Shown here: piece after piece, positions 6,118 to 58,453 of the stretch | How positions within the stretch are numbered: the stretch's first letter is position 1 | Layout: each line of letters opens with the position of its first letter | Origin: an uncultured Candidatus Saccharibacteria bacterium | Lineage (GTDB): Bacteria; Patescibacteriota; WWE3; CAZQFB01 | DNA length: 64,000 nt | Direction of reading: 5' to 3' | Assembly (NCBI GenBank): GCA_964592525.1 | Contig: CAZQFB010000004.1 | Span: forward strand, 1,195-65,194 | The notes under the pieces: model-generated | What the model was told of the DNA's origin: nothing | Database searches by the model: none | Seen by the model: the letters and a program-made list of their open reading frames with translations, nothing else | Made by a program: the position numbers and the translations under genes

Positions 6118-6236
6118 TTCAAATTGTATCCTATTAGGCAGAACGATTGCAAAGGATTCTAAGCTTGAGGTGGGTTTAGCCCATAGAACTAGGAATTAAG
6201 TGGCGGGATTGCGCATAGCTGTGTACTATTAAAGAT

Positions 6237-6968
6237 ATGGTCCAGAAAAACTCTGCTCGCAAGCGCTCTTCCTCGCTGAAGGTGGGGCATCATAAATTAT
6301 GTGCTTTGGCTGGGAAAATAAAGCGACCTTTGGGTTTAGCTATTTTGTTTACAAGCACCTTTGTACTGTTTAATGAAATATTGTATCCCGCTTTTAATAC
6401 TAGAGCCGAGGCCAAAGTACTCCTACCCGTTCCCGACAATTATTTTGAAGAAATGGCGCTTAAAAGGTTAGCGGCTTTTTCTTTTGCAGAGTTGGCTTTT
6501 AATGAACTGATTGATCCCTATGCTGATTTAGCACCCGGTGAAACAATCCCACCTGTGTTTTATCTCACTGTACCTGAATTGGGATTATCTGGGGTTGCCG
6601 TAGAAACTAATAGTGTGGATACAACCCCCCACGAGATGCTGGGTCATTATAAAGGTAGTTCTCTGCCAGGTAAGAGAGGTAATGTATTTGTTTATGGTCA
6701 CTCTACTTTGCCTTCTCATTTTGATATCAACAACTACAAAACACTGTTTACTTTTTTGCCCAAGCTTGAAGCGGGAGATGAGATTATTGTTAATTACAAT
6801 AATAAGGATTATATCTACGTGGTTGAGAAAAAAGAGGTTTTTGAGCCGGATGAGCTGGATCCACTAAAATGGCGCCATCTTCATTACGGCTCGCTTTCTC
6901 TCATGACCTGCACGCCACCCGGTACTACTAACCAACGCACTGTCGTTTTTGCTAAGCAAGTCTATTGA
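6237..6968 (+). CDS. sortase family transpeptidase
   Basis: N-terminal membrane anchor. Conserved sortase core: His (VYGHSTLP), TLxTC-type motif (LSLMTCTPPGT) and downstream Arg (NQRTVVFAK). Divergently oriented to the three surface-protein genes. Confidence 0.7.
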   Translation: MVQKNSARKRSSSLKVGHHKLCALAGKIKRPLGLAILFTSTFVLFNEILYPAFNTRAEAKVLLPVPDNYFEEMALKRLAAFSFAELAFNELIDPYADLAPGETIPPVFYLTVPELGLSGVAVETNSVDTTPHEMLGHYKGSSLPGKRGNVFVYGHSTLPSHFDINNYKTLFTFLPKLEAGDEIIVNYNNKDYIYVVEKKEVFEPDELDPLKWRHLHYGSLSLMTCTPPGTTNQRTVVFAKQVY

Positions 6969-8126: not shown

Positions 8127-8900
8127 ATGTATCTGTGCCGGGGGGATAACTTCTTAGCCGTTTCCTGTCAAGGAGCCATGATTTATCGCTGGCGGTATCG
8201 GGGAAGGGATATACTTTTTCCTCAAGATCTGCAGCCGCAGGGGAAGTTGCGAGGTGGGTTGTTTGAGGGGTTTCCTTTTTTTGGTCCTCCGCCAACAGGG
8301 ACCAACTACCCCCAACACGGGTACTTGCGTCACAGGATAGCTACTAGGCAAAGAGTAAGCTATTTTGCCGATGACACCAAGCTGATTTCTCATGTTGAGT
8401 TTGACTTTGAGGTGCCGTTTGGTGCAGATCCGTTGTATCAATGGGGTCACGTGTTGAAAGTGATGACGCGTGTGACCGAAGATGGCTTTCAGCGGAGTCT
8501 TACGCTCCGGTGGCTGCCACAGGACTTGTGGCGGGTTATTTCTCCAGAGCCTAGTGTTGGGCCTCTCACACTAGGAATCCACCCCTACTTTCACCTTCCC
8601 CACAAGCAGGCAATGGTTGGTGTGGGGAGAAGGGTGGTTGATATCTCGGCAACTTCAGAGTTGCCGGATCCACTACCTCTCACCGAAGAAGGGGTGGTTG
8701 AGGTTGATGTGCTGGGTTTGGGTCAAGTCACAATTCGGTTGGAAGGGCAACTGTGGCGTGATGGTTATGTTTGGCTGTGGCGGGATTCTGACGAGCATTT
8801 GTGTGTGGAACCAGTGATGGGGCAGCCGTGGTTGGCTAAACCAAAGGATAGAGAGCTTTTTTCCCTAGCCTATTCCATGTCTTTCACTCCTGTGGGGTGA
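8127..8900 (+). CDS. aldose 1-epimerase family protein (hexose-6-phosphate mutarotase-like)
   Basis: Motifs RGGLFEGFPFFGP, QHGYLRHR, GIHPYFHL and LCVEPVMGQPW resemble the YeaD/glucose-6-phosphate 1-epimerase family. An in-frame TGA at 8109 limits any upstream extension. Confidence 0.5.
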   Translation: MYLCRGDNFLAVSCQGAMIYRWRYRGRDILFPQDLQPQGKLRGGLFEGFPFFGPPPTGTNYPQHGYLRHRIATRQRVSYFADDTKLISHVEFDFEVPFGADPLYQWGHVLKVMTRVTEDGFQRSLTLRWLPQDLWRVISPEPSVGPLTLGIHPYFHLPHKQAMVGVGRRVVDISATSELPDPLPLTEEGVVEVDVLGLGQVTIRLEGQLWRDGYVWLWRDSDEHLCVEPVMGQPWLAKPKDRELFSLAYSMSFTPVG

Positions 8901-8985
8901 CCTTAGACGCTGACCCCTTAACTAATAATTAGTTAGGGGGTCAAGTATTTATTTCTCCAAGGGATCTAGGTGTTATCATTAAAAA

Positions 8986-31600: not shown

Positions 31601-34330
31601 AGCTATTGTATGTTCATGTTTGATACTCCGGGTGACACGGCAGCGGATTGTGTGGGTAAAGCGATTGGTGCTTTGTGTGGTGAGGTAGTGGTGGTGCCAA
31701 CCTGTGGTGATGGGGTTTGTACTCCGCCTGAAGATAGCACCACCTGCCCACAGGATTGCCCGGCTGGAGGACTTACTTGTGGTGATGGGGTGTGTGAGCC
31801 CCCAGAGGATGAGATTAACTGCCCCCCAGATTGTGCTGTGGCTTTGTGTAGGGATGAGACCGCTGAATGTGGTGCTGGGGCATGTTGCCCCGGTTTAGTT
31901 GAAGTGGGTTTTTGTGAGCTAGGTTCGGATGGATTATGCGTATGTATGGATTGTGGCTCTGTTTGTAGAGCTTGTGGTAATGGGGTGTGTGAGGCTAATG
32001 AAAATGAGTGTATGTGTCCGCAAGATTGCGCGGTGGGTACCCCGGATTTAGAAGTATCGGGTATTACTTATTATGCTTCTGAAGCAGACGCAATTACGGG
32101 GACTACTCCTTTAACGGAAGCAGATCTTATTAATTACCTCGGCCAACAAATATATTTTAAGGCAGAGTTAACTAATATTGGTGATGGTCAGGTGCCTGTG
32201 GGGTTCTTTACCGAATGGCGTCAGGGTACTCCAGATGAAGACATTGCCGAGATGACCGTGTTAGATCACAGTTATCACACTTACCCAGTGGGTCCGATCT
32301 TGCCTCCGGGAACGGTATCAGAGCATGAAAGCACCATTCAAAATTGGACGGTAGTGGCAGGAACCCATAAAATCGGCTTTATTGCTGATAGTGAAAACTT
32401 CCCGGGTTCAACTCAAGGCGGCTATATTAGTGAAGTTAATGAAAACAATAATGCCTACACGATCACCTTACAGATTTCAGATTTAATTCCAATCCCAGAA
32501 GATGCTCATTGTGTGGGTTCAGCTTGTGTGGTGGGTGCTGGGGTTAAACCTTGTGTGGCTGATAGTGATTGTACTGATTACTGTGGGGCGATGGATATTA
32601 CTAAGACGCTTATGGGTCCAGATGAGCCTGTTATTATTACCCAGCCGATATTTTATTACTGGAATGGTGGTTATTGTGAGGAGTTTGATCCTTACCAATA
32701 TCTCTGTGAAGGCTCTGATTGCGGTGAGATGTTCAGAAGTGGTGATCGTTTAATGAGTAATACTCCGAAGCAGGCTTTACTGGATTGCCAGGCGGCTTTT
32801 GCCCATTGCCCTCAACAGGAGCCGGAAGTGTGTAACGCCGATCTATGTGTCAAAGCTCAAGCGGAGATAGACCATTTTGAGTTGGCTGATGGCTTGGAAA
32901 TTAATAACCAGCCACCCATGTTCAGGCTTTGGGTCAATGGCACTGCGTTGACTGAAGTTGGTGGCGTGAGACTACCGGTGCAACAGGTAGTGGCAAACGA
33001 AGGAGCTTGGCAAATTTATACCTTTGATGTTCCCGGTTTGCAACCAGATTCCTCTGTCTATATTGCCTATGTCAATGATCGCTTTGATACCCCAGAGCAT
33101 AACCGTAACTTGTTGATTGACTGGGTAGAGATTGCAGGTAACCGGATTCAGGCGGAGAACGCTCAATATGATATTGGTGAATTTGTCGGACACGCTGAAG
33201 TCTTTCGTGGTCATCAGTCTTCAGGTATGGACTGTAAGAGAGTGATAACGGGTCGGGAGGTTATGGAAGTTGAGGGGATGTTGCGCTTCAATAGTCCTTG
33301 TTATACCCCGGGTTCGTTACCTTTGGGTACCATCACCGGTAGATTATACGAGGGTGCTAGCTTTGCCGGCGACCAGCTAAGTGATCCTGGTTTTGAGCTG
33401 ACTGCTTCTTCAGCCTACACTTTACGGCTTGACCCTTCGGCTGGTACCACAGCTATTTTTGATTTTAGTGCCTACACGCCAAGTGGTTATACCCTAGCTG
33501 ATACTTGGCAGGGATTGCATGATCTGGATCTGATGTATGTTGGTGAGGGTGAAGTGCGCTATCGTGTTTGTGAGGAAGGTGGTTCTTGCACTGGTCTGTT
33601 GGAAGCAAGTAGCTTTGCCGATCATAACGTCATTACGATAGAGATCCCAGAAACTGGTTTAGGTACAACTCCTCTACTCACTATTGATTGGTACATTGGT
33701 GAAGTAACCGAAGCACAGGGGGATTGTGATATTTGCGAGCTTAACCCCAGCCGTAGCTACACTATAGCTGATGGGTTAGTAGCCGTGCTCAACCAAGCTG
33801 GCGCAGCTTATCAAGTACCAGCCGAGGTGCTTTTAGGCATTCTCCTACATGAGGGTTGGCATTCCAGTGGACCCCATGTCTTAGACTTTACACAAGAGCA
33901 AGTTAGCCAAGCTGTTACCTCGCGTGAACCCTATTGTTTTAGGAACTCTTACTGTGCGGCTGGACCGTTCCAATTTTCAACCAACCCTAGCTCTTTTGTT
34001 GGCACTGTTACAGAACTAAGCAATGGGTGCCCTGACTGGCCTGGCTATGACTTATGGTCAATTACAACTGGCACTGCCGGTTCTGATACTCGCCTTGAGT
34101 TTAATCAGGTGTTAGGCGAAACTGCGGACTATACTCCCCACCCCTGTAATTTAAGAGATGCTGCCTTTGCTGCGGCGGCTTATGTTAAAGAACATTTTAA
34201 TGCTGTTCCTAATAATTGTACTGCTTGGGGTGAGGCTGCATACGATGAAGCCTGGCGGATTTGGCATGGTACTTGCTATGACATCTGCGATAATAATTTT
34301 GAGTTTCTTACTGAAGTGTGCTTGGAGTAA
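28646..34330 (+). CDS. giant Cys-rich secreted/surface protein (1894 aa) with repeated CGDGVC..CPxDC mini-modules and duplicated beta-sandwich-like modules
   Basis: N-terminal TM followed by YRRQIFFNRAAS. Five copies of CG(D/N)GVC(E/T)xPEDxxxCP(E/Q)DC. Two ~100-aa modules (QCFSSNCPRIALFVNGEHIITTDS and LWVNGTALTEVGG...IDWVEIAGNRI) are shared with paralog A. The C-terminal ~180-aa Cys/Trp-rich domain is of unknown function. Confidence 0.7.
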   Translation: MMPNLPEPLTIPPSEIPSGGRSFKPFPHIKPQALIVLFMFLITPLVLFMLYRRQIFFNRAASLEEYTYEFTTPARVNAEVANAQIYPDLAIGEQRHFVTWRDHSVSGSDEAADIMVATSDGLVAGDSWGGYTQLTQASITASDDYYPVPSIAAANDDQAIVVWDGSSELYFSRTSNGGDEWTSPAIIQEKPPAITAISVEAKVSGQCFSSNCPRIALFVNGEHIITTDSKNYGEFVIIDSSVAQKYTFNLPSSVEITEADEVSIRVYNVEGLRTAYFRAVSINDQPEAKPGILDRGLLEDGSSFDGVDYAEITGSNWVTVSADEGAEGMLRFNHTSAGLLGNQAEFTFFNSGSEGFAHSPKIIYANGTYYVVAVILNDSEMKLVMYHSLDQGDSWSFEEVEAGLTGTDWQSVTPAIAYGGGKLHIVYAASDEIKYALREVASGSSWSTPQTIAPSFVSNPRLIANDDKVFVAFAGGEASVISIATKNHSDSNFNFYQVGTGENTHHPDLALSGDLLQVYWVSGNDLSYSGSRDEGVTWLAPIMVTTGGGNQYPAVAAGANTPGSVVYQGSASGDFDIYASSVVIEEVVNACGDGVCEAPEDSTSCPEDCPPSTTSPDLVVSGISYYASEGDALAGTNPLSEDALSNYLGQDIYFKAALQNVGSVILQKFYVDWREGSPGDVYEEMSSFKMEEHSYPENERLSNLLPGEISSHGSTVGRWTVPGAGSYAVGFRADVEHEPDLNPQAIGSLEEDDEDNNEFVLTFQISGSSCGDGVCTPPEDGSNCPEDCGITPVPRNGNIVVVAKGIASSSGVMPKIKVAADGSFLKVTDGGDETEVEVTSEYQSYYFAITTSREKIDVLFANSDINLAIADVADKAILLIDRVSMYTPFLQETRIEVENGMGSASEAIILDTGGSFAQEFSSLTTRHFIQATDLVCSADNLLGGVTPCESNALTISETGALRINYDSSVQCLQDNNPSLPLLAPRSYCMFMFDTPGDTAADCVGKAIGALCGEVVVVPTCGDGVCTPPEDSTTCPQDCPAGGLTCGDGVCEPPEDEINCPPDCAVALCRDETAECGAGACCPGLVEVGFCELGSDGLCVCMDCGSVCRACGNGVCEANENECMCPQDCAVGTPDLEVSGITYYASEADAITGTTPLTEADLINYLGQQIYFKAELTNIGDGQVPVGFFTEWRQGTPDEDIAEMTVLDHSYHTYPVGPILPPGTVSEHESTIQNWTVVAGTHKIGFIADSENFPGSTQGGYISEVNENNNAYTITLQISDLIPIPEDAHCVGSACVVGAGVKPCVADSDCTDYCGAMDITKTLMGPDEPVIITQPIFYYWNGGYCEEFDPYQYLCEGSDCGEMFRSGDRLMSNTPKQALLDCQAAFAHCPQQEPEVCNADLCVKAQAEIDHFELADGLEINNQPPMFRLWVNGTALTEVGGVRLPVQQVVANEGAWQIYTFDVPGLQPDSSVYIAYVNDRFDTPEHNRNLLIDWVEIAGNRIQAENAQYDIGEFVGHAEVFRGHQSSGMDCKRVITGREVMEVEGMLRFNSPCYTPGSLPLGTITGRLYEGASFAGDQLSDPGFELTASSAYTLRLDPSAGTTAIFDFSAYTPSGYTLADTWQGLHDLDLMYVGEGEVRYRVCEEGGSCTGLLEASSFADHNVITIEIPETGLGTTPLLTIDWYIGEVTEAQGDCDICELNPSRSYTIADGLVAVLNQAGAAYQVPAEVLLGILLHEGWHSSGPHVLDFTQEQVSQAVTSREPYCFRNSYCAAGPFQFSTNPSSFVGTVTELSNGCPDWPGYDLWSITTGTAGSDTRLEFNQVLGETADYTPHPCNLRDAAFAAAAYVKEHFNAVPNNCTAWGEAAYDEAWRIWHGTCYDICDNNFEFLTEVCLE

Positions 34331-40757: not shown

Positions 40758-40829
40758 GCGCCCGTAGCTCAGTGGTAGAGCACGACTCTTATAAAGTCGG
40801 GGTCCCTGGTTCGATCCCAGGTGGGCGCA
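40758..40829 (+). tRNA. tRNA-Ile (anticodon UAU)
   Basis: Manual cloverleaf. Acceptor GCGCCCG/TGGGCGC, D-arm GCTC-AGTGGTA-GAGC, anticodon stem CGACT/AGTCG with loop CTTATAA (anticodon TAT), T-arm CCTGG-TTCGATC-CCAGG, discriminator A. Confidence 0.8.
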
Positions 40830-40917
40830 CAGTATAGCGGGCAGTATAAAAGTTGAGAGCGATAATTTAATTTTCACACCAGAGTACTTTAAGCAAGTAA
40901 CTCTCTAGCCTCTGGAG

Positions 40918-43680: not shown

Positions 43681-43752
43681 GGGGCTGTAGCTCAGTGGTA
43701 GAGCGTTCCGTTCGCAATGGAAAGGTCGGGGGTTCAACTCCCCCCAGCTCCA
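43681..43752 (+). tRNA. tRNA-Ala (anticodon CGC)
   Basis: Acceptor GGGGCTG/CAGCTCC with G3:U70 Ala identity pair. Anticodon stem TTCCG/TGGAA with loop TTCGCAA. T-arm GGGGG-TTCAACT-CCCCC. Discriminator A. Confidence 0.85.
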
Positions 43753-43824
43753 CGTGTACTTCGAGTTCCCTGCCTGCCGGCAGGCAGGGATTCTCGGTGA
43801 GTCCACATATAGGCAGGCGGGGCG

Positions 43825-43871
43825 CAACATTCGCATTGTTGAGGTCAGGAGTTCGATCCTCCTCGGGTCCA
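43825..43871 (+). repeat. orphan tRNA 3'-half fragment (Ala-like anticodon arm CAACA-TTCGCAT-TGTTG, T-arm AGGAG-TTCGATC-CTCCT, acceptor CGGGTCC-A)
   Basis: Canonical anticodon arm, T-arm and acceptor 3' strand, but no matching 5' acceptor or D-arm upstream. Lies between tRNA-Ala and the integrase gene. Preceded by the perfect 22-bp palindrome CCCTGCCTGCCGGCAGGCAGGG (43768..43789). Confidence 0.5.
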
Positions 43872-44050
43872 CACTGGTACTGGGCTGGTTGTTAATTTCA
43901 CAGTAAGGCAAGTGGGATGCAATATTAGTATGTTTGCAGTTAGGAATTTAACAGCAACGCTTTTTTCTTAAAGTAGCTCTTGCTTATATTATGGAAGACC
44001 GCACTTTTTGGAAGTTTGGGGAGGTTGTTATTTTCTACCCGTAGAATTTT

Positions 44051-44923
44051 TTAAAGCTCGTCAAGATCGACTTTTTCGTCTTCAATTTTGTCAATATATT
44101 GGAGATATTTTTCCGTAGTGGCTAATCTTTTATGTCCGGCTAATTTGGACACGACCACTAAACTGGTTCCCTTTTTCAGGTGATGGGCAATAAAGGTATG
44201 TCGTAAATCATTTACTTTAGCCCTTTCAATCCCCGCTAAACGGAAATAACGATCAATGGAGGTGCGGATGTTGCGCACTAATAAAGGATTACCAGTTTTC
44301 GTGACAAATAAAGCGGGATGGTTAGTGGTGGTACGCACTTCTAAATATTCACTGACAGCTTCTTGAGCAGCCCTGTTAAGTGGTATTTCTCGCCCCTCAC
44401 GGTTGTGTCCTCCAGGTACGGATACTGTCCCCGTAGCTTCCGCAGCTCCAAAATTGACATGACCGACTTCTAACTGGGCGAGTTCTCCGATGCGTACTCC
44501 GGTTTGTAGTAGTAACTCTACTACCGCTGAAGTGCGCTTATCATGACGACAAGCATCCCTTAAAGCCCGATACTCTAGCCGACTTAAAATCCGAGGTGGT
44601 TTAACGTCAAATTTAGGATGAGCAACTAAAGTGGCTGGATCCTCATTAATGTAACCACTGTTTTTTAAAAACTTGAAAAATGTTTTAGTGGAGTTGGTTT
44701 TTCGTGAGATACTTTTATTAGTAAACCCGCGTTGACGAAGAGAGTCCATAAAGGCGTTAATATCATCTTTAGTGACCTCTTTAGCTGTAACTTTACCATG
44801 TTTATTGAGAAACTCTATAAGTTGCTCAATATCTTTGCCATAGGCAACCACAGTCGCTTGAGAACGATTTTTATCTTCTAGATCTTGTATAAATTTTTGT
44901 CGCGCATCTAATAATTGGGTCAT
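44051..44923 (-). CDS. tyrosine recombinase, XerC/XerD family (site-specific integrase)
   Basis: N-terminal SAM-like core-binding domain. Catalytic region with conserved R...HxxR...Y (LRHTFIAHHL..., LAGHKRLATTEKYLQY). Confidence 0.8.
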   Translation of the reverse strand: MTQLLDARQKFIQDLEDKNRSQATVVAYGKDIEQLIEFLNKHGKVTAKEVTKDDINAFMDSLRQRGFTNKSISRKTNSTKTFFKFLKNSGYINEDPATLVAHPKFDVKPPRILSRLEYRALRDACRHDKRTSAVVELLLQTGVRIGELAQLEVGHVNFGAAEATGTVSVPGGHNREGREIPLNRAAQEAVSEYLEVRTTTNHPALFVTKTGNPLLVRNIRTSIDRYFRLAGIERAKVNDLRHTFIAHHLKKGTSLVVVSKLAGHKRLATTEKYLQYIDKIEDEKVDLDEL

Positions 44924-45053
44924 TATTTATTGTCCTTTAGGTTTTTACCACGATAGCTAGAAACTGTCAATAATATCTACTACAGGTTACATCTTAACAT
45001 AAAGAAGAATCTTTTTCACCCTGGCAATCTCACCTGCGTGCTAGAATGTATTT

Positions 45054-45407
45054 ATGCTTAGCCGGTTTAAAGTCTTGCTTGTTATTTTAGTATCGCTTTT
45101 TGCGATTTGGTGGTTTGGTCGACCCTTGGTTGAGGTTTATAAAAGGGTTTCCAGAATAGATACCTTAAGTTTTGAAGTGGCTACTCTGCGGTCAGAAAGA
45201 GATAAACTCTCTGCTGATTTAGAGTATTATCGGAGTTTGGCTTTTGTGGAAAAGGAGGCGCGGAATCGTTTTAATTTCTCTAGACCTGGGGAAACGGTCG
45301 TTATTGTACCAGAAGAAGGAGAAGATATCTTGGGAGAGCAGACCACCCACTTAGAGGAAAAGACTATAAGTAATTGGAAAGCATGGTATAACCTGTTTTT
45401 TGAGTAA
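45054..45407 (+). CDS. septum formation initiator family protein (FtsB/DivIC-like)
   Basis: N-terminal TM, coiled coil, and C-terminal motif YYRSLAFVEKEARNRFNFSRPGETVVIV typical of the FtsB/DivIC family. Confidence 0.55.
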   Translation: MLSRFKVLLVILVSLFAIWWFGRPLVEVYKRVSRIDTLSFEVATLRSERDKLSADLEYYRSLAFVEKEARNRFNFSRPGETVVIVPEEGEDILGEQTTHLEEKTISNWKAWYNLFFE

Positions 45408-45494
45408 TCTCTGTTGTCGTTATAGGTGTGTGTTTACTCATTATGGACGCAGTTGAAAATAGTCTTTTCAGCAGCTAAAATGGCTTGTGTTTAA

Positions 45495-45568
45495 GCCTGG
45501 GTAGCTCAGTTGGTTAGAGCACCGGACTCATAAACCGGAGATCGAGGGTTCGATCCCCTCCCCAGGTA
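45495..45568 (+). tRNA. tRNA-Met elongator or tRNA-Ile2 (anticodon CAT)
   Basis: TAGCTCAGTTGGTTAGAGC D-arm nearly identical to E. coli elongator tRNA-Met. Anticodon loop CTCATAA. T-arm GAGGG-TTCGATC-CCCTC. Acceptor GCCTGGG/CCCAGGT (G1:U72 wobble) and an A31:A39 mismatch lower confidence. Confidence 0.65.
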
Positions 45569-45755
45569 CGATCTTGACCTAAACACTTAATGGGTTTTGG
45601 TTATGGAGTAAAAAATTTTACTGCTTATACCTATTTATCCAGTCTGCTTGGGTTATGCCCCAAGTGTTTATAGACCGAGTTTTATTTATCGTAACCAGCT
45701 TTTAAGACTTGTCACTATGGTTTGCTCGTGTTAACCTTCTTACGGATTTAACTGC

Positions 45756-45828
45756 CGCCGGCGAGAGGAGCGGCTACCTCGTCAGGCTCATAACCTGAAG
45801 TTGCCCGGTTCGACTCCGGGGCCGGCAA
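45756..45828 (+). tRNA. initiator tRNA-fMet (anticodon CAT)
   Basis: C1:A72 mismatch (CGCCGGC/GCCGGCA). A11:U24 in D-stem (GAGG/CCTC). Anticodon stem TCAGG/CCTGA with loop CTCATAA. Close overall similarity to E. coli tRNA-fMet. Followed by CC. Confidence 0.8.
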
Positions 45829-46154
45829 CCTACTGTTGGTTGCTTTTTTAAACAGTTACTTAAGATATACCCCTTATGCTGTTGGTGGTTAGTTTTGCTT
45901 AAATGCTATTGACAGGGAATTTGTTTAGCTGTCATAGCCTCAATAGTAACGCTTGACGCATTTGGGTTAACCGAATATGTCTTTAGGGGATTGTCTGTGT
46001 GCTGCCAAAAACTTTTGCTCTTAGTATGTAACAGTGACTTGGGGGAGTTCATGACCATTATGGTAGTGTTGTTATTCGCTTAATATTAAATGCCTTTGGT
46101 CAGTAGACCTTTGCTAAGACTTGTTTTGTTGATTATAATTCCCCAGCATATCTT

Positions 46155-50339: not shown

Positions 50340-51449
50340 ATGAAAGTAGCGCTAGTGCACGATTATCTCAAGGAATTTGGAGGAGCAGAGCAGGTTCTTT
50401 TAGCTCTTGGCGAGCTTTTTCCCCATGCTCCTATCTACACGTCCTTCACTACCCCGCAGTTTCTTGATCAGCACCCAGAGTTTAAGGATAAAACCATCCG
50501 CCCCACCTTTCTGCAAAAAGTGCCTTTAGTAAAGCAGTTTTCTAAACACTATACCTTTATGTACCCGTTCGCATTTGAGCAGTTTGATCTGCGTGAGTAT
50601 GATTTGGTTATTTCGGATTCGGCTTGTTGGGCTAAGGGAGTGATCACTTCACCGCATCAGAAACACATCAGTTATATTCTGACCCCACCTCGGTTTCTGT
50701 ATCACTACACTGGTGAAACTGATCGTCGTTCACTTTGGCTATTAAAACCGTTATTAACACCTTTGGATACTTACTTACGGATTTGGGATTACCAAGCAGC
50801 GCAGCGAGCTGATTGTGTGGTGTCAATTTCGCAAACCGTGGCTAAGCGGGTACGTAAATTCTACCAACGAGATTCCGCTGTGATCTATCCGCCAGTGTTA
50901 GTGCCAACAGAGAGCCCCAGTTCGGTTAGGGGTGATTTCTATCTGGTGGTTTCACGTCTAGCCAAATATAAAAATATTGAAGTGGTGATAGCAGCAGCTA
51001 ACAGACTACGAGTACCCTTGAAAGTAGTGGGCATAGGTAGAGAAGAAAAGCGCTTGAGAGAGCTAGCTGGCAACACTGTGGAGATGTTGGGGTTTGTATC
51101 ACCAGCAGAATTAGCTAATTTGTACCGATCCTGTAAGGCATTGATTTTCCCCACCCTTGATGAGGATTTTGGCATCGTGCCTGTAGAGGCAATGGGACAT
51201 GGTGCGCCAGTGATTGCGGTTAAATCTGGTGGGGTGAGGGAAACAGTAGTGGCCGGATTATCTGGTGAGTTTTATTCTCCTGGTACTGTGGCGGAAATGG
51301 TCAACAATCTCATCACGGTGTTGGAACAATTTGATGGTAAAAAGTATCCGGCGCAGACTGTAAGTCAACAAGCAAATAGATACAGCCGTGAACGCTTTAT
51401 CAGCGAATTTAATCATTTATGTACTGTAGTGATGAAGGAGGTAATTTAG
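50340..51449 (+). CDS. glycosyltransferase family 4 (GT-B, group 1)
   Basis: C-terminal EDFGIVPVEAMGHGAPVIA (the E-x7-E-like motif of GT4). Confidence 0.75.
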   Translation: MKVALVHDYLKEFGGAEQVLLALGELFPHAPIYTSFTTPQFLDQHPEFKDKTIRPTFLQKVPLVKQFSKHYTFMYPFAFEQFDLREYDLVISDSACWAKGVITSPHQKHISYILTPPRFLYHYTGETDRRSLWLLKPLLTPLDTYLRIWDYQAAQRADCVVSISQTVAKRVRKFYQRDSAVIYPPVLVPTESPSSVRGDFYLVVSRLAKYKNIEVVIAAANRLRVPLKVVGIGREEKRLRELAGNTVEMLGFVSPAELANLYRSCKALIFPTLDEDFGIVPVEAMGHGAPVIAVKSGGVRETVVAGLSGEFYSPGTVAEMVNNLITVLEQFDGKKYPAQTVSQQANRYSRERFISEFNHLCTVVMKEVI

Positions 51450-51450
51450 C

Positions 51451-52263
51451 ATACCAGAACTACCGGAAGTGGAAACAATTCGTCAAGATTTAAACAAAGC
51501 GGTGTTAGGTGCCACTATTACTGGTTTGACTTCCAATTGGTCAAAAAAAGTAAAGCCTTCTCTTCAGGGTGTGCAGCAGAGGGTGGTGGGTAAGAAGATT
51601 ATGGGCATTGATCGCCAAGCTAAATTGCTAAGTATAGATTTGAGTGGTGGTGAGCACCTGTTGATTCATTTGAAAATGACTGGTCAGTTGCTCCTAAGAA
51701 ATCAGGAGGATAAAGCGGATAAGTATGTCCACCATATCATCCAGCTTGGGCATCGGGAATTAAGGTTTGCTGATGTCCGCAAGTTTGGTTATCTGCAGGT
51801 GGTTAACAGCGCCGAGAAAGAAAAGATCTTTGCTAGTTTTGGGTTGGATGTGTTGGTTTCTAGAGCGGACATTTCAGTATTTTGCAAAATACTGCAGAAG
51901 AAGGTGGTGCCAATAAAAACAGCACTGATGGAGCAGACTCTTATTGCTGGGGTGGGTAATATCTATGCTAATGAAGCCTTATTTTTGGCAGGGATAAATC
52001 CCCTTAGAAAGTCTAAGACCCTCTCGGAAGTTGAAGTAACAAAGCTTCTTAGCTGCCTGAAAAAAGTGTTTAAGCAAGGTCTTAAATACCGTGGGGTATC
52101 GGATAGCACTTATGTGGATCTCTATGGCAAGCAAGGTCAGTTCCAAAATCACCTTAAGGTTTATCGCAAAAGAGGTGCGCCGTGTCCCCACTGTGGCGCA
52201 AAAATCATGTACCAGAAGCTCAACGGTCGGGGTACTTATTATTGTCAGTTTTGTCAGAAATAG
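51451..52263 (+). CDS. fpg: formamidopyrimidine-DNA glycosylase (MutM/Fpg), apparent AUA start codon
   Basis: Reading frame encodes (I)PELPEVETIRQDL..., matching the Fpg N-terminus MPELPEVE with catalytic Pro2. C-terminal zinc finger CPHCGAKI...YYCQFCQ. Only ATA precedes the Pro codon, after an in-frame TAA at 51442. SD AAGGAGGT sits 8 nt upstream. The track start (GTG 51469) would delete the catalytic Pro. Confidence 0.75.
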   Translation: MPELPEVETIRQDLNKAVLGATITGLTSNWSKKVKPSLQGVQQRVVGKKIMGIDRQAKLLSIDLSGGEHLLIHLKMTGQLLLRNQEDKADKYVHHIIQLGHRELRFADVRKFGYLQVVNSAEKEKIFASFGLDVLVSRADISVFCKILQKKVVPIKTALMEQTLIAGVGNIYANEALFLAGINPLRKSKTLSEVEVTKLLSCLKKVFKQGLKYRGVSDSTYVDLYGKQGQFQNHLKVYRKRGAPCPHCGAKIMYQKLNGRGTYYCQFCQK

Positions 52264-52369
52264 CCCCACTCTTTTTATATCGCATCTAAAAAATTTAATT
52301 TAAGGGGATTTATTTTAGTCAATGGAAAGCGACAGAAAGCTTAACCAGCCAGGGCTGGGTAAATGAGAA

Positions 52370-52402
52370 GGGCGGGTCGCCTTCGGCGACCCGCCCATTT
52401 TA
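52370..52402. terminator. strong GC hairpin GGGCGGGTCGCC-ttcg-GCGACCCGCCC, bidirectional terminator-like
   Basis: Perfect 11-12-bp stem with UUCG tetraloop. Sits immediately 3' of the minus-strand ORF 52404..52934 and ~100 nt downstream of fpg. Flanked by moderately T/A-rich tracts. Confidence 0.5.
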
Positions 52403-52403
52403 G

Positions 52404-52934
52404 CTAGGCTATCCTTCTCGCCTCTTTTCTTATCGTGTCGTAAAGAGCCGAGGTGAGGTATTCCCCCCACTTCTTCTCGGTCCGGAAACCGCATGCCTTG
52501 GCGGCGTCCGCTGCGCGCCAGAAGTAGCGCAGGGCGTTTTCAACCATCTTCTTGCCAATGTCGATTTCTCGATCAGTGGCGCGCCCCTCCTGCTCTCGCG
52601 CGAGGACCCGGTCCTGCTCCCGGATGACCTCCTCTACGTACAACGCTCTCTTGACGAGCTCCAGTTGCACGTCGCTTCTGGTTATGTCTTCCGGGAGTTC
52701 CCCGAACTCCCGGAAGAAGCGGTTGCGGTTGCGAGCCTCCCTTAGCTTTCGCACCGGCCAGAAGACCTTCCCCCAATACCAGGCGGTGAAGCGGAACAGC
52801 TTCGCGCCTCCTTGTATGGCGAGCGTTTCGTTCAAGGGCTTGACACAGATATACCATATCAAGCCCAGCAACGCGGGGATCGTTGCGCCAACGCTGATGC
52901 CGAGCATCGCCACCAACATAAGTTTCCAGTCCAC
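52404..52934 (-). CDS. hypothetical membrane protein (176 aa) in GC-rich island
   Basis: Two N-terminal TM helices then a charged region. The locus is much more GC-rich than its surroundings, and many overlapping ORFs in other frames are consistent with high GC. Confidence 0.4.
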   Translation of the reverse strand: MDWKLMLVAMLGISVGATIPALLGLIWYICVKPLNETLAIQGGAKLFRFTAWYWGKVFWPVRKLREARNRNRFFREFGELPEDITRSDVQLELVKRALYVEEVIREQDRVLAREQEGRATDREIDIGKKMVENALRYFWRAADAAKACGFRTEKKWGEYLTSALYDTIRKEARRIA

Positions 52935-53316
52935 TGCACTTCTCCTTTGGGGATTCGCCCCAGAGGTGCCAGATTCTCTGGCACTACGAGCAGAGGTTTT
53001 CTAGCCCCCGCACCGCGAGATTCGCTCGCAGATGGGGGAGAAGATAACAGACAATAAACCTATAGTCAAGGAGGTGGTTTTGTACCTGGCTTTTCTATTA
53101 AAGCGGTTGATTAATTTGAGCAACTACGCTTTTGTCATTTGAATATTGCTGATATACCGCTTTGACAAATCTTTATATGGAGATAGTTAATTTTGTGCAA
53201 AGTGTCTGTACTATTTTTTGTTTATCCTAATTAGCACCAGAAAGAGTGTGACTAATTCCAGCAACAGCTTGCTACTCTTACTGGATTTCGTGGTGCTTTA
53301 CACTTACACTACGGCT

Positions 53317-54384
53317 GTGCAGATAACTTCTCTCAAACTAACTAATTTCCGCAACCATGGTGACTTAGAAATAAACTTTAAGCAAAATAATACTTACGTG
53401 GTTGGTCCTAACGCAGTTGGTAAAACAAATTTATTGGAGGCAATAGCTGTGCTGACTAATGCTAAACCAATACGTGGTTCGCTGGAGGTAGAGCTAATTA
53501 CTGCTGGTGCCGACTATACACGCGTAGAAGGTCAGATTGTGAAAGATAATAGAAGCATTCCCTTAACTTTTTACTTAGAAAGGGGTGACGGTGCTAGAGC
53601 TCGTAAAAGGGTTTGGGTTAATCAGGTGGTCAAATCACAGGTTAAGTTTGCTGGTATTTTTCAAGTGGTTATCTTTAGACCCGAACAAATTGAGGTGCTA
53701 ACCCACTCTCCTAGTTACCGTCGTAAACAGCTGGATACAATGTTTATGCAATATGATAACAGTTACTTGATGGCAAAGCGTAATTATGATCGGGTAGTTA
53801 AACAGCGGAACCGGCTTTTGGAAGCAATTAGGGAATCAGGTAGAAATCAAGACACCTTATCTTATTGGAACGATAAACTACTTGAATATGGCTTGTTGCT
53901 ACAAGGCAAGAGAGCGCATTTTCTCAATTTCTTAACTAATTACTTTAACCACCAAGCTGGGGCTGTAGATCCAGCCGGTCAAAGCTTAAAAGTTAGTTAT
54001 CACAAAAGCAGATTAACGCAGGAACATCTGTTTGAAATTCAAGATAGGGAAATTGCTGCTCGGAGGACTTTAGTTGGTCCTCACTTGGATGATCTTCTTT
54101 TCACCCTTCAGGGTCGTGCTTTGGCTGATTTTGCCTCTCGTGGCGAGCAACGGTCGACGATGTTGTTGTGGAAGATGGCGGAGTTGGATTATTTGCAGGA
54201 GCAAACTGGACATCGGCCAGTTCTTCTTCTAGATGATGTTTTTTCCGAGTTTGATGAACAGCATCGGGAGAATGTCCTCAAACTTTTAGGGCAGCAACAG
54301 ACGATTGTGACCGCTACTGATTTGGCAAGGATAGATCAGGGTCTTTTGGCAAGTGCGGAAATAATTAGTTTGGCTAATTGTTAG
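53317..54384 (+). CDS. recF: DNA replication and repair protein RecF
   Basis: LKLTNFRNH...VVGPNAVGKTNLLEAI (Walker A) and C-terminal LLLDDVFSEFD (Walker B/D-loop). The GTG at 53317 gives a RecF-like N-terminus. The track ORF extends to the ATG at 53218 with a non-homologous extension. Confidence 0.75.
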   Translation: MQITSLKLTNFRNHGDLEINFKQNNTYVVGPNAVGKTNLLEAIAVLTNAKPIRGSLEVELITAGADYTRVEGQIVKDNRSIPLTFYLERGDGARARKRVWVNQVVKSQVKFAGIFQVVIFRPEQIEVLTHSPSYRRKQLDTMFMQYDNSYLMAKRNYDRVVKQRNRLLEAIRESGRNQDTLSYWNDKLLEYGLLLQGKRAHFLNFLTNYFNHQAGAVDPAGQSLKVSYHKSRLTQEHLFEIQDREIAARRTLVGPHLDDLLFTLQGRALADFASRGEQRSTMLLWKMAELDYLQEQTGHRPVLLLDDVFSEFDEQHRENVLKLLGQQQTIVTATDLARIDQGLLASAEIISLANC

Positions 54385-54567
54385 CAAATCACGAACATTA
54401 CTAATTACTATTAGGGTCTGTTAGGCTCAACCTGCTGATATGAACACAAGGTGTGGGAGGTTCGGTCAATCCTTAACCCCCACACACCTTGTCGGTTTCT
54501 AGTTACTTGCTTAACCAAGTACTTCTTGTCTTTTCTGATTTGCTGGGGTTCAATTACCCCCAAATCC

Positions 54568-54858
54568 TTATTTGGCTTTTTGGATAGCCTTTGTCAGAGC
54601 TCTTTTGATTTCACTCGCTATCTGACGGCTAAGCTCTGAAGGGCGGTGGGTATCAATTTGATCCCCGGTGATTTTTACTCGGTTTCTCTGTAGACAAGCA
54701 CCATTTTCGGCAAAGACGGCAACTTCCACTACCAGGTTGTATTTAGCCATCAGACCCTCCTTAAGGTGGGTGTCGTATTTGGTTGATACCCTTTTGCAGG
54801 GTAAGTTGTCAATTATCTTCTGGGTATCAAAAAAGGCAGTTGCCCAATAACTGGGCAA
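54568..54858 (-). CDS. hypothetical small protein
   Basis: ORF in a GC-elevated island. The likely product starts at the internal MAKYNLVVEVAVF... (~60 aa). No confident family assignment. Confidence 0.3.
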   Translation of the reverse strand: MPSYWATAFFDTQKIIDNLPCKRVSTKYDTHLKEGLMAKYNLVVEVAVFAENGACLQRNRVKITGDQIDTHRPSELSRQIASEIKRALTKAIQKAK

Positions 54859-54873
54859 CTGCCTGGCTCTTAT

Positions 54874-55224
54874 TTATTCTGCTACATGTCCAGTGCCCTG
54901 GCATTGGGGGCACCTTAGCCATTCGTAGCCTGGCTGGGCGGTTGGGTGGTAGGTGTACCCACGTCTGGTCCAGGAGCCCTTCTTGCAGGTAGAACAGTTC
55001 CAGGGGTATTCTGCCTCCTTGTTCATGTTACTAGCACAAATAACGGCCTCCCTAAGTTGGCTAAGGCTACACAGCAACAAGCGATATAGCGCTGCGAGGT
55101 CTGTGGTAGGTACTTCGCCACTTCCAACCTTGTTTGTGTAACTTGTTAGTTGTGCCTCCAGTTCTGTTGCTTGCTGTTGAGTATCCGCGAGGACTCTCTG
55201 GAGAAGGTTAAGGTCAAGTGCCAA
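54874..55224 (-). CDS. hypothetical protein with coiled-coil N-terminus and C-terminal zinc-ribbon (CxxC...CxxC)
   Basis: CSTCKKG...CPQCQGTG cysteine pairs. Lies in the GC-elevated island. Confidence 0.35.
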   Translation of the reverse strand: MALDLNLLQRVLADTQQQATELEAQLTSYTNKVGSGEVPTTDLAALYRLLLCSLSQLREAVICASNMNKEAEYPWNCSTCKKGSWTRRGYTYHPTAQPGYEWLRCPQCQGTGHVAE

Positions 55225-55376
55225 GCTGATTCTCCTTTTATGTTGAACTCGCCAAGCGGTTGTGTCTGATGTTAATACCCGCTGCTCTTTAATGCAACTG
55301 TGGGTGATCGGTTCTTTTGTGGGTGGTTATTTAAACGGATGAGCCCCGCACTTTCCCTGAAAGTGCGGGGCTCTGG

Positions 55377-55724
55377 TCAAGGACTGATAAGGTAGGCGTA
55401 TTCTGCTCCGTAGTACGCCTCAAAATAGGCTGGAGAGATTGTCCGTAATTGATGACAATCCGGTACTGAATAAGTCACTTGCTTGCCATTGGTGTTGACC
55501 GACCGGAAACAGACAAAAGGTCCTTTCGTGATCACAAACCGCTCAAGGTTAGGTGTTATCATCACATGATTGAGGGTTTCTGGTGCCGCGAGTTCGGTTT
55601 GTAACTGTGCTTGTTGGCGCTCTTCGTATCGTGTCGCTTGTCCAAATCCGAGCATCACCATTCTGACTATAACCGTGACGACTGCGAGTGAGACTGCGAT
55701 TGCTGCAACTTCGCGCTTGCTCAT
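55377..55724 (-). CDS. hypothetical membrane-anchored protein
   Basis: A start at MSKREVAAIAVSLAVVTVIV... (TM anchor) is preferred over the track start at 55817. Confidence 0.35.
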   Translation of the reverse strand: MSKREVAAIAVSLAVVTVIVRMVMLGFGQATRYEERQQAQLQTELAAPETLNHVMITPNLERFVITKGPFVCFRSVNTNGKQVTYSVPDCHQLRTISPAYFEAYYGAEYAYLISP

Positions 55725-55909
55725 TGTGATTCTCCTGTAGCTTGAAGTGCGCAGAGTACAAGTTGAGCAGATGATACTATTATAGTTAATTAAATACAAG
55801 GGGGGTAGGAGACTCATAGTTATTAAATAAAAGGAAGAACCCAGCTCTGGTTAGCCAAAGCTGGGTTCTCGGGTAGGTTGTGCTCCGACCGTATCTCCTC
55901 CTGTAGTGA

Positions 55910-57151
55910 CTACTTGGGGGAGAGCAGGAAAGGCAGGTACACTCTTACCGGGCTGTAATAAGGATCCGGCAAGGCGTTGGGGCAGGCTCGCTGGAAAGCG
56001 ACTTGCGGACCGTTCGTGCCCCTATATACCAAATCCATCAACCCGTCCCCGTTCAGATCCGGAGCCATAAACTCGTCCTGGTCAAGCCAATAGGGCAGTG
56101 GTCCGATGTCTTCTTGGTACCACTGGCCAGTACTGTCCTCCAGCCAACTGATTGAGTAGTTATTGACGATTACCAACTCGTCCTGACCGTCACAAGTCAG
56201 ATCAATGAAGGACATTCCCACAACACCAGGGGGTATTTCTCGAAACCACGAGGGTTTCAAGTGATCCCCTTCTTGGATGAAGGTATGGATGGCAGAATCA
56301 TTGCCACCATAGGCAATGACCACATCCAGAAGACCATCCTGAACTCGCCCTTCACCTGGTCCTGGTGCACTTAAATCAACCAGATAGATGGCTCGAGGTA
56401 GACCATACCACGGTCTATCCCTCTGATAATCTACCGGTTGGTCAAAACCACCACCAGGCAGACCAGCATAGACCGAGAAAACGGGGTTCTGACCCTGACC
56501 CCACATCACCACCAGGTCGCCCAAGCCATCTCCGTTGACATCACCAAACACAATCCGGTTATCACCGGCAGGGTGGCTATACATTCTGGTTACCTTTAGC
56601 TCGTTCCGGTTTGGATCAAATCGGAATACAGCCAAGTGTACCAGTACAGACCTTGGCCAGCTGGTCACAGCCAAGCCCCCAGGAAACACGGCGAGGGCAT
56701 CGGCAGCTACATCGGCGACGGTCCCAAAAAGGTACTTGTCGGCCCGACCAGACCACCATACTTGGTACTGGTTTCCACAAAAGACAACCACGTCGTTGTG
56801 ACCGTCTTGGTTAATGTCCTCGATTCCAAGCAGGGCCTTCTCGTGGAGCATCAACTTGGTATCCATGATGCTCTGGTGATAGACGCCCTCTTGGTGATCG
56901 AAGGTATGGATCTGGACATTGCCACCAGTTCGGCTGGTGGCGACCAGGATTTCTGGTTCGGGGTCAGTGTCCATGTTACCAATGGCTATGGACTTGTCCC
57001 ATGTGGCATCCATGTTAGCTAGCAGTGTCGGTTCGGTGAACCGATCACTTGGGATCCGGGAAATTGGGTCCCTTGCCTCCACAAGAGAGGGAAGGCTCAA
57101 AAGAACCCATCCCAGAACGATTACTACTGCGAACATTTGGAGACCGCGCAT
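55910..57151 (-). CDS. secreted FG-GAP/VCBS repeat protein (integrin-alpha-like beta-propeller)
   Basis: Signal peptide (MRGLQMFAVVIVLGWVLLSLPSLVEA). Repeated Ca-binding-like DxNGDGxxDLV motifs (DINQDGHNDVVV, GDVNGDGLGDLVV, DLNGDGLMDLV, DLTCDGQDELV). GC clearly higher than the genome background. Confidence 0.65.
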   Translation of the reverse strand: MRGLQMFAVVIVLGWVLLSLPSLVEARDPISRIPSDRFTEPTLLANMDATWDKSIAIGNMDTDPEPEILVATSRTGGNVQIHTFDHQEGVYHQSIMDTKLMLHEKALLGIEDINQDGHNDVVVFCGNQYQVWWSGRADKYLFGTVADVAADALAVFPGGLAVTSWPRSVLVHLAVFRFDPNRNELKVTRMYSHPAGDNRIVFGDVNGDGLGDLVVMWGQGQNPVFSVYAGLPGGGFDQPVDYQRDRPWYGLPRAIYLVDLSAPGPGEGRVQDGLLDVVIAYGGNDSAIHTFIQEGDHLKPSWFREIPPGVVGMSFIDLTCDGQDELVIVNNYSISWLEDSTGQWYQEDIGPLPYWLDQDEFMAPDLNGDGLMDLVYRGTNGPQVAFQRACPNALPDPYYSPVRVYLPFLLSPK

Positions 57152-57258
57152 TTGCTCCTCCTGGAAGCTTAGGCCCTCAATTGGGCAAGATACCTTCGAA
57201 ACAGGCGGTATTTTATCAGAGATTATTCAGCAAAGCAAACACTATGGGTTACTAGGAT

Positions 57259-57867
57259 TCAGATGATGTTTCCAAGGAATGTTATGCGGTGGATGGGGCT
57301 GACGCCATGCCTTTGTATTGCTTGGCAATGGAAGTTTGTGCCGTAGCCTTTGTGCTTATCAAAGCCATATTGTGGGTACTGTTTATGCATTTTAAGCATG
57401 ATGCTATCTCGGGTTACTTTAGCGATAATGGAAGCAGCTGCAATGGAGGCGACGGTACGATCACCTTTAGTGATACCTCTTTGCCTAGCGTTACTTATCG
57501 GTTTTAAGGTAAAGTGGTCTATAAGGTAGAAATCAATGGGTTCCCTTAAAGCGTCACAGGCTCTTAGAAAAGCTAGCTCATTCGCTGCCCTTATGCCCAG
57601 CTCGTCTACCTCCAGGTTGGAGACTTCACCTAAACCATATTTAACGTAAGTAGTTAGTTCCGTAAACAGTAACTCGCGACGTTTTGGGGTGACTAGTTTA
57701 GAGTCTCTTAGATAGGGGTGAACCACAAAATCTCTGGGTAGTATGACCGCAGCAGCCACTAATGGACCAGCTAAAGGTCCCCGACCAGCTTCGTCTAAAC
57801 CAACGACATTAGTGAAACCCTTGTGCCACAGGATGTTTTCGGCAATTAAGGTGGGGGAGATTTTCAT
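57259..57867 (-). CDS. rnhB: ribonuclease HII
   Basis: VGLDEAGRGPLAGPLVAAAV catalytic DEAGRG motif. ~200 aa. Confidence 0.85.
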   Translation of the reverse strand: MKISPTLIAENILWHKGFTNVVGLDEAGRGPLAGPLVAAAVILPRDFVVHPYLRDSKLVTPKRRELLFTELTTYVKYGLGEVSNLEVDELGIRAANELAFLRACDALREPIDFYLIDHFTLKPISNARQRGITKGDRTVASIAAASIIAKVTRDSIMLKMHKQYPQYGFDKHKGYGTNFHCQAIQRHGVSPIHRITFLGNII

Positions 57868-58071
57868 AGCTTCAAGATAGCACAGGAGGGAGCAAAAAAA
57901 TAAGTCCCAAGACGGATAACGGCAGCTAATAGTAAGCGATCCCGCAGGACAACTTTCCAGTTCACCATCATTAAATTGGACAAAATATCCTTAATGTTAT
58001 AGGATTTCGGCAACCGAAAGGAGACGGAAATCACTACCGAACTTGAGCAGCTGGTATTTGACCCCGACCAA

Positions 58072-58305
58072 GTGCAAAGGGTACGAAAGGTCATTGCGGA
58101 TGCCTGTTTGGTTGATGGCGGAGTTGGGGGTGGAGGAGCGCTTCTGTGGTTTGGTTGGTCTGACTGCTCACGGCTTGAGCGCTTCATGCTAAGAGAGGCT
58201 ATTGAGCGAACTTTAACAGAGTTAGGGTGGAAGTATCGAACCTTGTGGTGCGAGAATGGGTTTCTGGTCACCCTCCCGTCTGTTATTCTCTACCGTGGTA
58301 TCTAG
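58072..58305 (+). CDS. hypothetical small protein (77 aa), followed by intrinsic terminator
   Basis: GTG-start ORF ending 10 nt before a + strand terminator. The open frame extends further upstream without an ATG. No family recognised. Confidence 0.25.
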   Translation: MQRVRKVIADACLVDGGVGGGGALLWFGWSDCSRLERFMLREAIERTLTELGWKYRTLWCENGFLVTLPSVILYRGI

Positions 58306-58314
58306 AACACAACT

Positions 58315-58354
58315 CTCCCCGCTTGATTTGGCGGGGAGGGTTTACCTTTTATTT
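58315..58354 (+). terminator. intrinsic terminator: CTCCCCGC-ttgatttg-GCGGGGAG followed by GGTTTACCTTTTATTT
   Basis: 8-bp GC-rich stem plus T-rich tail on + strand, upstream of fic. Confidence 0.5.
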
Positions 58355-58453
58355 ACCGCATAATAATCTTATAATTACCGCAGGGGTTTGGTGGCAGGGA
58401 GTGCTCACTCATCCTGACCTTATGTTTGTAAGGGCGATAGCTTTTTAAGTTTT

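Follow-up and report, generated by a model that had tools for sequence, protein, structure and literature searches.

Genomic islands and transferred genes are reported to be common in Patescibacteria, where they can reach 13% of the genome by length (PMC12455944). Phage morons of the HK97 gene 15 type, for their part, have a promoter and a terminator of their own and a deviant guanine-plus-cytosine (GC) content (PMC3594210). The locus described here bears comparison with both. It lies in a 64-kb stretch of contig CAZQFB010000004.1 (the window) and consists of two GC-rich patches on either side of recF: island 1 (52330-53060), with a single gene for a 176-amino-acid (aa) protein, and island 2 (54400-57260), with four genes, including one for a 413-aa secreted FG-GAP protein. 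We consider it likely that both patches are lineage-specific foreign insertions in a conserved, co-directional string of housekeeping genes of a Microgenomates-like bacterium of the Candidate Phyla Radiation (CPR).

An earlier note on this DNA had claimed that two GC-rich islands flank recF, and this was borne out: their GC is 0.581 and 0.499, against a window mean of 0.443 (standard deviation, sd, 0.034 at 700 nt). Island 1 is the top peak of the 64 kb at scales of 300-1000 nt (z ~4.0-4.3 at 500-700 nt), and island 2 reaches z 3.1 at 2.8 kb, likewise the window maximum. In a strand-symmetric tetranucleotide scan, which measured the L1 distance from the window signature in 1266 sub-windows of 730 nt, the top two outliers fall at 52301 (z 5.3) and 56301 (z 5.2), while the lowest GC-normalised signature correlation in the window falls at the FG-GAP gene. 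Both islands therefore lie outside the variance of the window in GC and tetranucleotide content, a check that the note itself had proposed. At the level of single genes, GC at third codon positions (GC3) is 0.401±0.044 in 41 background genes, with a maximum of 0.525; it is higher in the 176-aa, FG-GAP and zinc-ribbon genes (Table 1), and that of the 176-aa gene is 8 sd above the background. The codon log-likelihood shows a deficit of 0.14-0.30 per codon in four of the five island genes (-0.17 in the Zn-ribbon gene, -0.19 in the 115-aa gene), whereas 40 background genes stay within ±0.09.

Such an excess could in principle come from the proteins themselves, if they were rich in Gly, Pro, Ala, Arg and Asp, or island 1 could be a structured non-coding RNA. 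Gly, Asp and Pro are indeed abundant in the FG-GAP protein, several frames of island 1 overlap and are open on both strands, as the note had said of its many overlapping open reading frames (ORFs), and its leader folds significantly well. We fixed the amino-acid sequence of each protein and drew its codons from background usage (background sd 1.5, maximum 3.9). The GC expected on this basis is 0.459 for the 176-aa gene and 0.469 for the FG-GAP gene, whereas ~0.587 (z 9.6) and ~0.532 (z 7.7) are observed; z is 2.9 for the Zn-ribbon gene, 2.0 for the 115-aa gene and 0.8 for the 60-aa gene. Since the amino-acid-controlled expectation is 0.46-0.47, the excess is synonymous, and a repeat protein rich in Gly, Asp and Pro does not account for it; amino-acid content is thereby ruled out as its source. 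As for RNA, Rfam gave no gathering-score match in island 1, E-value scans returned chance-level matches only, and the best match, the L20 leader (24.9 vs 58.7 bits), was caused by the terminator hairpin; the minus-strand frame, moreover, has the coding pattern GC3>GC1>GC2 and a protein homologue. Taken in either form, this explanation is hardly credible.

The islands are not alike, nor is island 2 uniform. Because their compositions differ, the two are probably separate events or of different age. The note had described the second patch as clearly richer in GC than the background; this stands for the FG-GAP gene (53.1% GC) and the Zn-ribbon gene (52.1% GC), which carry the signal, but not for the remainder, as the ORFs at 54568-54858 (0.447) and 55377-55817 (0.467) and the segment 54.4-54.87 kb are near background and the 730-nt tetranucleotide sub-window at 54401 is no outlier (z 0.6). 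By the usual island signs of deviant composition and codon usage, the strongest outliers are island 1 and the FG-GAP gene; the Zn-ribbon and 115-aa genes deviate moderately and the 60-aa gene does not. Since the 60-aa gene lacks compositional deviation, island 2 may not have been acquired as one uniform block.

Comparison with related contigs places both islands in gene junctions. The backbone encodes, in order, FtsH, a 5'-3' exonuclease, a GT4 glycosyltransferase, Fpg, RecF, Fic, an ATP-dependent ligase and a P-type ATPase. On contig L015 (RecF 43% identical) all eight recur in this order, 40-54% identical to those of the window and on a single strand; its fpg/recF and recF/fic pairs overlap and no island gene is present. 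On L008, fpg and recF also overlap and the recF-fic junction holds two unrelated minus-strand small genes, while in L005, the closest relative (RecF 50%), 52 nt separate fpg from recF, after which come an unrelated 102-aa minus-strand gene and rnhB. Minus-strand genes in this part of the window are confined to two junctions, with island 1 between fpg and recF and island 2 plus rnhB between recF and fic, and all inserted genes are antiparallel to the backbone. The island genes are thus absent at the syntenic position in relatives that are themselves distant (RecF 41-50% identity), and among the relatives compared the fpg-recF junction is interrupted in the window only. The small genes in the same slot of the relatives showed no homology to the island genes. 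As this recF-fic cargo differs and bears no likeness to the island genes, the junction appears, from gene order, to be an insertion slot reused across lineages.

The same comparison bears on the possibility that these are native, fast-evolving, lineage-specific genes whose GC-rich synonymous sites reflect selection (on expression, or on mRNA structure or stability) and whose junctions reflect loss in the relatives. Such a history would suit the distance of the relatives and the lack of a donor, mobility genes and flanking repeats (see below), and a gene elsewhere in the window (8127-8900), with GC3 0.525 and a strong downstream hairpin, hints at a gene class. Given, however, that a GC3 of 0.77 is 8 sd from the background genes, that tetranucleotides deviate too, that the genes are missing in four relatives of different sub-lineages, that the fpg/recF overlap in two of these is more simply ancestral, and that the islands differ from each other in composition, we believe a native origin to be unlikely.

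An artefact of assembly is harder still to sustain. Per-run Logan contigs (SRR11845623, SRR11845624 and SRR11845625) are 100% identical to the window over 52374-53822 and, contiguously, over 53869-59610, and further independent contigs cover the upstream backbone through fpg to 52360. A literature search on these runs turned up nothing. Every island/backbone junction is spanned except for 13 nt (52361-52373) beside the hairpin at 52370-52396; the gap at 53823-53868 falls inside recF, off any junction. If contaminating higher-GC DNA had been joined into a CPR contig, one might expect what is seen at that hairpin, where contig coverage breaks off at 52360 and resumes at 52374, and the compositional jumps do coincide with hairpins. 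However, four false joins would be needed, since each of the two islands is flanked by colinear backbone, and the identical contigs from three runs span the island 1-recF and recF-island 2 junctions, the interior of island 2 and the stretch from the FG-GAP gene through rnhB to fic. As far as the per-run contigs allow, we reject a chimera, which we regard as extremely improbable.

A donor was sought widely. The note had proposed that BLAST of the FG-GAP protein would identify the donor lineage; this failed, as a word search of 5.8 billion clusters returned best relatives that are only 24-31% identical, at the level of the repeats. Across these clusters and 1.84 billion representatives, neither the 176-aa nor the FG-GAP protein has a homologue closer than 31-34%. 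No usable match was found in viral contigs, metagenome contigs, PDB sequences, phage genomes (DNA and protein) or plasmids (protein), and PHROGs, PADLOC and NCBIfam had no match for the island proteins tested. A single tyrosine recombinase is encoded in the window; it looks XerC/D-like and lies 7 kb away (44051-44923, minus strand). This Xer-like gene sits between tRNA-Ala(CGC) and two tRNA-Met genes (region 43681-45830), and a perfect 16-nt palindrome (43767-43790) directly follows the tRNA-Ala.

Several of these observations weigh against foreign insertion. There is no donor lineage, the matches being repeat-level for the FG-GAP protein and a single homologue for the 176-aa protein. The island edges have no integrase, transposase, tRNA target, direct or target-site repeats or terminal inverted repeats, and an edge-repeat search gave chance-level 8-18-nt matches only, so that neither mobility signatures nor an identifiable donor or close homologue marks them as a genomic island. 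Even the closest relatives share no more than 50% RecF identity, and deletion in all of them is formally conceivable; the left junction of island 1 (52361-52373) is outside the independent contigs; the promoter and terminators of the islands are consensus matches only; and the composition of the 60-aa gene is native-like and that of the 115-aa gene weakly atypical. On the other side stand the synonymous GC excess, the atypical tetranucleotides, the interrupted junctions and the improbability of a chimera, and because of these the horizontal acquisition of island 1 and of the FG-GAP gene is well supported. The note's claim of horizontal acquisition is therefore supported in part: well for these parts, and not by the composition of the 60-aa gene. 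The source would be an unsampled one of higher GC, be it phage, a mobile pool or another cell; for island 1, if we assume the general relation between GC3 and genomic GC, a donor of ~58-65% GC is suggested.

Table 1. Features of the two islands and of the adjoining backbone genes
Feature	Position	Strand	Remarks
fpg, left flank of island 1	51451..52263	+	abuts or overlaps recF in relatives
Terminator-like hairpin	52370..52396		perfect 12-bp stem, 11 G-C pairs, 3-nt loop
176-aa orphan gene	52404..52934	-	GTG start; GC ~0.587, GC3 0.767; N-terminal membrane anchor, charged all-helical C-terminal domain
GC-rich 5' leader, ~100 nt	52935..53040	-	three short stem-loops; fold z -2.8
Sigma-70-like promoter match	53041..53069	-	TTGACT, 17-nt spacer, TG, TATCTT; consensus match
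recF, between both islands	53317..54384	+	backbone gene
Imperfect inverted repeat, 15 bp	54446..54492		recF/island 2 spacer
60-aa basic protein gene	54568..54750	-	Shine-Dalgarno AAGGAGG, ATG start; composition like background
Zn-ribbon gene putative intrinsic terminator	54834..54864	-	13-bp perfect stem, then TTTTTTGA
116-aa Zn-ribbon-like protein gene	54874..55224	-	TTG start, Shine-Dalgarno AAGGAGA; GC3 0.534
Hairpin after 115-aa gene	55341..55373	-	15-bp perfect stem, 3-nt loop, 3 nt past stop
115-aa protein gene	55377..55724	-	Shine-Dalgarno AGGAGA, ATG start; N-terminal membrane anchor; no family found
FG-GAP gene putative terminator	55835..55870	-	16-pair stem, then T-rich tail
FG-GAP secreted protein gene, 413 aa	55910..57151	-	GC ~0.531, GC3 0.574; signal-like N-terminus
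rnhB (RNase HII)	57259..57867	-	adjoins recF in L005; not at this junction in L015 or L008

Island 1 is laid out as one transcription unit: a promoter-like site, the leader, the Shine-Dalgarno site AAAGGAGAA with a GTG start, the 176-aa ORF and a hairpin. The sigma-70-like site, one of only three promoter-like sites in 7 kb, is placed exactly at the AT-to-GC transition that forms the upstream edge of the island. None of 200 shuffles of the leader folds as well, and in its last stem CCUC is predicted to be able to pair with the GGAG of the Shine-Dalgarno site. At the other end, the left edge of the island, the strong GC hairpin that the note had seen bounding the gene is indeed present, 7 nt past the 176-aa stop and ~105 nt past that of fpg. 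The note's two transmembrane segments, however, reduce to one clear segment at residues ~5-29 (Kyte-Doolittle peak at residues 5-23). The AlphaFold2 (AF2) model has helices throughout, at a predicted local distance difference test score (pLDDT) of 67, and the protein has no family in Pfam, NCBIfam, PHROG or PADLOC and no structural neighbour.

An exhaustive phmmer search of the 1.84 billion representatives yielded a sole homologue, P0141, which is 31-34% identical (E 9e-6; pairwise BLASTP 4e-14), has the same architecture and shares the motifs FWP, RNRxFxEFGxxPxD and FWRAxxxAKxxGF. Its gene sits on a 1.35-kb contig of run SRR22388039, L009, with a GTG start, a AAAGGAGA site and a raised GC3 of 0.63. 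A leader of short hairpins precedes it (385-510, fold z -4.2), akin to that of the window. Because P0141 has the same architecture, start and leader, this distant homologue settles, at the level of sequence comparison, that the 176-aa ORF is a real gene. Both leaders consist of 3-4 short GC hairpins that end at the AAAGGAGA site and GTG start, with recurring GAA/GAAT-rich loops. With two sequences known, the leader may be a translational control element, and its recurrence hints that leader and gene may travel together. Inside the coding sequence, the most conserved motif, FFREFGELPED, is encoded by a perfect palindrome of 14 bp (3-nt loop, 52687-52717); as its DNA is not conserved in the homologue on L009, we treat it as incidental. 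Paralogy of the 176-aa and 115-aa membrane proteins, hinted at by two short DNA repeats, was likewise rejected (BLASTP E 1.4).

It is tempting to go further and to place the 176-aa unit in an unsampled family of mobile single-gene cassettes of CPR bacteria or their viruses, with recF-proximal junctions as a recurrent, recombinase-less hotspot that swaps envelope, host-interaction or exclusion genes. The features conserved in such a cassette would be the GC-rich structured leader, the AAAGGAGA Shine-Dalgarno site, the GTG start and the membrane-anchored helical protein. We consider this extension doubtful.

The largest gene of island 2 encodes an FG-GAP/VCBS repeat protein, as the note had recognised along with the four minus-strand genes of the patch: its repeats score above the Pfam gathering thresholds for PF13517 (1.5e-16, 61.1 bits, cut-off 26.9) and PF01839 (4e-11, 43.0 bits, cut-off 22.1). 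The AF2 model (pLDDT 75.5, predicted template modelling score 0.77) is a seven-bladed propeller whose best structural matches are chain B of the KICSTOR complex and integrin alpha-v propellers (Foldseek probability 1.00). Three strict DxNxDGxxD calcium-loop motifs lie at residues 112, 204 and 365, and no lipobox, LPXTG/sortase motif, C-terminal anchor or further domain was found. The protein is therefore predicted, on the strength of this model, to be a secreted calcium-binding propeller that serves as a ligand- or surface-binding module. The note's coiled-coil/zinc-ribbon protein corresponds to the 116-aa product, whose N-terminal half is helical and coiled-coil-like and whose C-terminal half has a CSTC...CPQCQGTG zinc-ribbon-like motif, that is, the CxxC...CxxCxGxG arrangement. 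Its score against DnaJ_CXXCXGXG (PF00684) is 16.9 bits (E 0.0077), below the gathering score of 32.7 bits, and we regard it as a putative cytoplasmic zinc-ribbon protein. No family was detected for the 115-aa and 60-aa proteins. Their ORFs start later (55724 and 54750) than the longest reading would have it, each with AGGAG before the start, and protein-collection records agree; the 413-aa product is, like these two, recorded as a called gene.

The units of both islands look self-sufficient, and independent expression would be expected of them. A Shine-Dalgarno (AGGAG) site precedes the start of each of the five genes, that of the FG-GAP gene being strong, and a strong hairpin lies directly downstream of four, the 60-aa gene being the exception. 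Island 2 is a row of four head-to-tail units of which the three upstream (FG-GAP, 115-aa and Zn-ribbon) each have their own hairpin; no terminator separates the FG-GAP gene from rnhB. The inverted repeat between recF and the 60-aa gene may be a terminator for this convergent pair. In the region 15 terminator-like sites were counted where 7.1±2.9 would be expected, and of the eight strongest stem-loops in the window, five fall in the islands, which make up ~6% of the sequence.

This organisation raises the question of whether an integrated phage left the islands behind, or whether they form the cargo of a defence hotspot beside a SoFic-like Fic; their products would then act in exclusion or defence instead of adhesion. 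A small membrane protein is a typical exclusion factor. The recF-fic slot holds different small genes across relatives, and the Fic-domain protein next to it (58454-59494, with a C-terminal helix-turn-helix) matches the PADLOC SoFic model at 1.8e-52. The units are also moron-like in that they have a promoter-like site, terminator-like hairpins and deviant GC (PMC3594210). Yet Fic is a conserved backbone gene in L015 and L008, no structural or integrase genes accompany the islands, and the island proteins tested match nothing in PHROG, PADLOC, phage genomes, viral contigs or plasmids. We find a phage or defence origin very unlikely.

Returning to foreign insertion as the preferred explanation, the following course of events may be proposed. 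DNA from an unsampled higher-GC source would have entered the conserved housekeeping string, island 1 arriving in the fpg-recF junction as one self-contained transcription unit and island 2 being placed in the recF-fic junction as a string of four head-to-tail units. Most of the products would be directed to the envelope, namely the secreted FG-GAP propeller and the two membrane-anchored small proteins, besides which there are the Zn-ribbon and 60-aa basic proteins. A role in the envelope or in host interaction is thereby suggested.

CPR bacteria are dependent on host cells, and their genomes are tiny and streamlined. Accessory genes whose products reach the surface are strong candidates for a role in attachment to the host or in the exclusion of phages, and the present locus offers a clean, well-bounded example, in which self-contained antiparallel units have apparently been dropped into junctions of a tightly packed, operon-like string. 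As the island genes are almost without relatives, they enlarge the 'dark' accessory pool and do not explain it. Islands of horizontal gene transfer have already been documented in Patescibacteria (PMC12455944), so that this type of event is known and the finding is illustrative, not surprising: an ordinary event in an unusually clean case.

The surroundings of the islands call for some remarks. The gene rnhB, present beside recF in L005 but missing from the junction in both L015 and L008, probably represents an earlier insertion into the same recF-fic slot. Its codon usage is mildly atypical (log-likelihood -0.09). The divergent spacer between rnhB and fic (57868-58453, 586 bp) has a low-complexity, proline/serine-rich 135-aa ORF (GC3 0.52) that overlaps the rnhB start, as well as a 13-pair hairpin (58311-58342), without an Rfam match. 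As for fpg, it has an apparent ATA start (51437-51471): the frame I-P-E-L-P-E-V matches the obligatory MPELPEV N-terminus of relatives, AGGAGG lies 8 nt upstream of the ATA, and no in-frame ATG, GTG or TTG precedes the catalytic Pro. The start at GTG 51469 chosen by gene callers would drop this catalytic N-terminal proline. Either translation of fpg begins at ATA, a rare initiation codon, or fpg has been inactivated. A tRNA-Ile with anticodon UAU (40758-40830, ARAGORN), an uncommon bacterial way of reading AUA, may be relevant to this start.

Elsewhere in the window, a 257-aa gene (8127-8900) between those for TIM and thioredoxin reductase has GC 0.52, GC3 0.525 and a synonymous-site z of 3.9, lacks a Pfam or NCBIfam match and has a 16-bp hairpin (8911-8943) behind it; here a third insertion in the style of the islands, though a milder one, may be present. 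Large surface-type proteins are encoded at 1470-6968 and 22927-34330 (725 aa without a family, 822 aa with a VWA domain, 1673 aa and 1894 aa). A sortase gene (6237-6968) adjoins them, and the set is likely to be cell-surface machinery; the FG-GAP protein has no sortase motif. The relatives of RecF with a named source are Patescibacteria, Microgenomates or 'uncultured bacterium', at ~37-40% identity, and a scan of genome contigs with RecF returned solely an unrelated gammaproteobacterial RecF. As the closest RecF relative is only 50% identical, the lineage of the window is poorly sampled.

How, then, does the locus compare with what has been described? Like the islands of Patescibacteria and other CPR bacteria (PMC12455944), those of the window have atypical GC and tetranucleotides and carry genes of unknown function in a conserved, streamlined backbone. 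They differ in being very small (0.7 and 2.8 kb, with a single gene in island 1) and in having no mobility genes, tRNA target, repeats or identifiable donor. Nor are they integron cassettes, since the hairpins are perfect or nearly so, mutually unrelated and, by inspection, without a GTTRRRY core, and no IntI was found. Among proteins, the FG-GAP/integrin-alpha propellers resemble the 413-aa product in their repeats, DxNxDGxxD loops, predicted seven blades and N-terminal secretion signal, whereas this product stands alone at 413 aa and is at most 31% identical to any of the 5.8 billion clusters. The CPQCQGTG and upstream CSTC of the 116-aa protein could form one zinc centre, as in DnaJ-type CxxCxGxG modules, from which it differs in its sub-threshold score, its one potential centre, the lack of a J domain and the unrelated helical N-terminal half.

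Phage morons resemble the units in organisation. Morons are inserted within a phage or prophage, whereas the islands lie in a housekeeping chromosomal string flanked by fpg, recF, rnhB and fic, with no phage homology or PHROG match, and their promoter-like site (53069-53041) and hairpin (52396-52370) are consensus matches only. Even so, the island units would likewise be independent, with a promoter-like site, a terminator-like hairpin and deviant GC, between genes that are adjacent in relatives, and phage morons often encode small membrane proteins, as the islands do. We believe that this resemblance is best regarded as functional analogy, not family membership.

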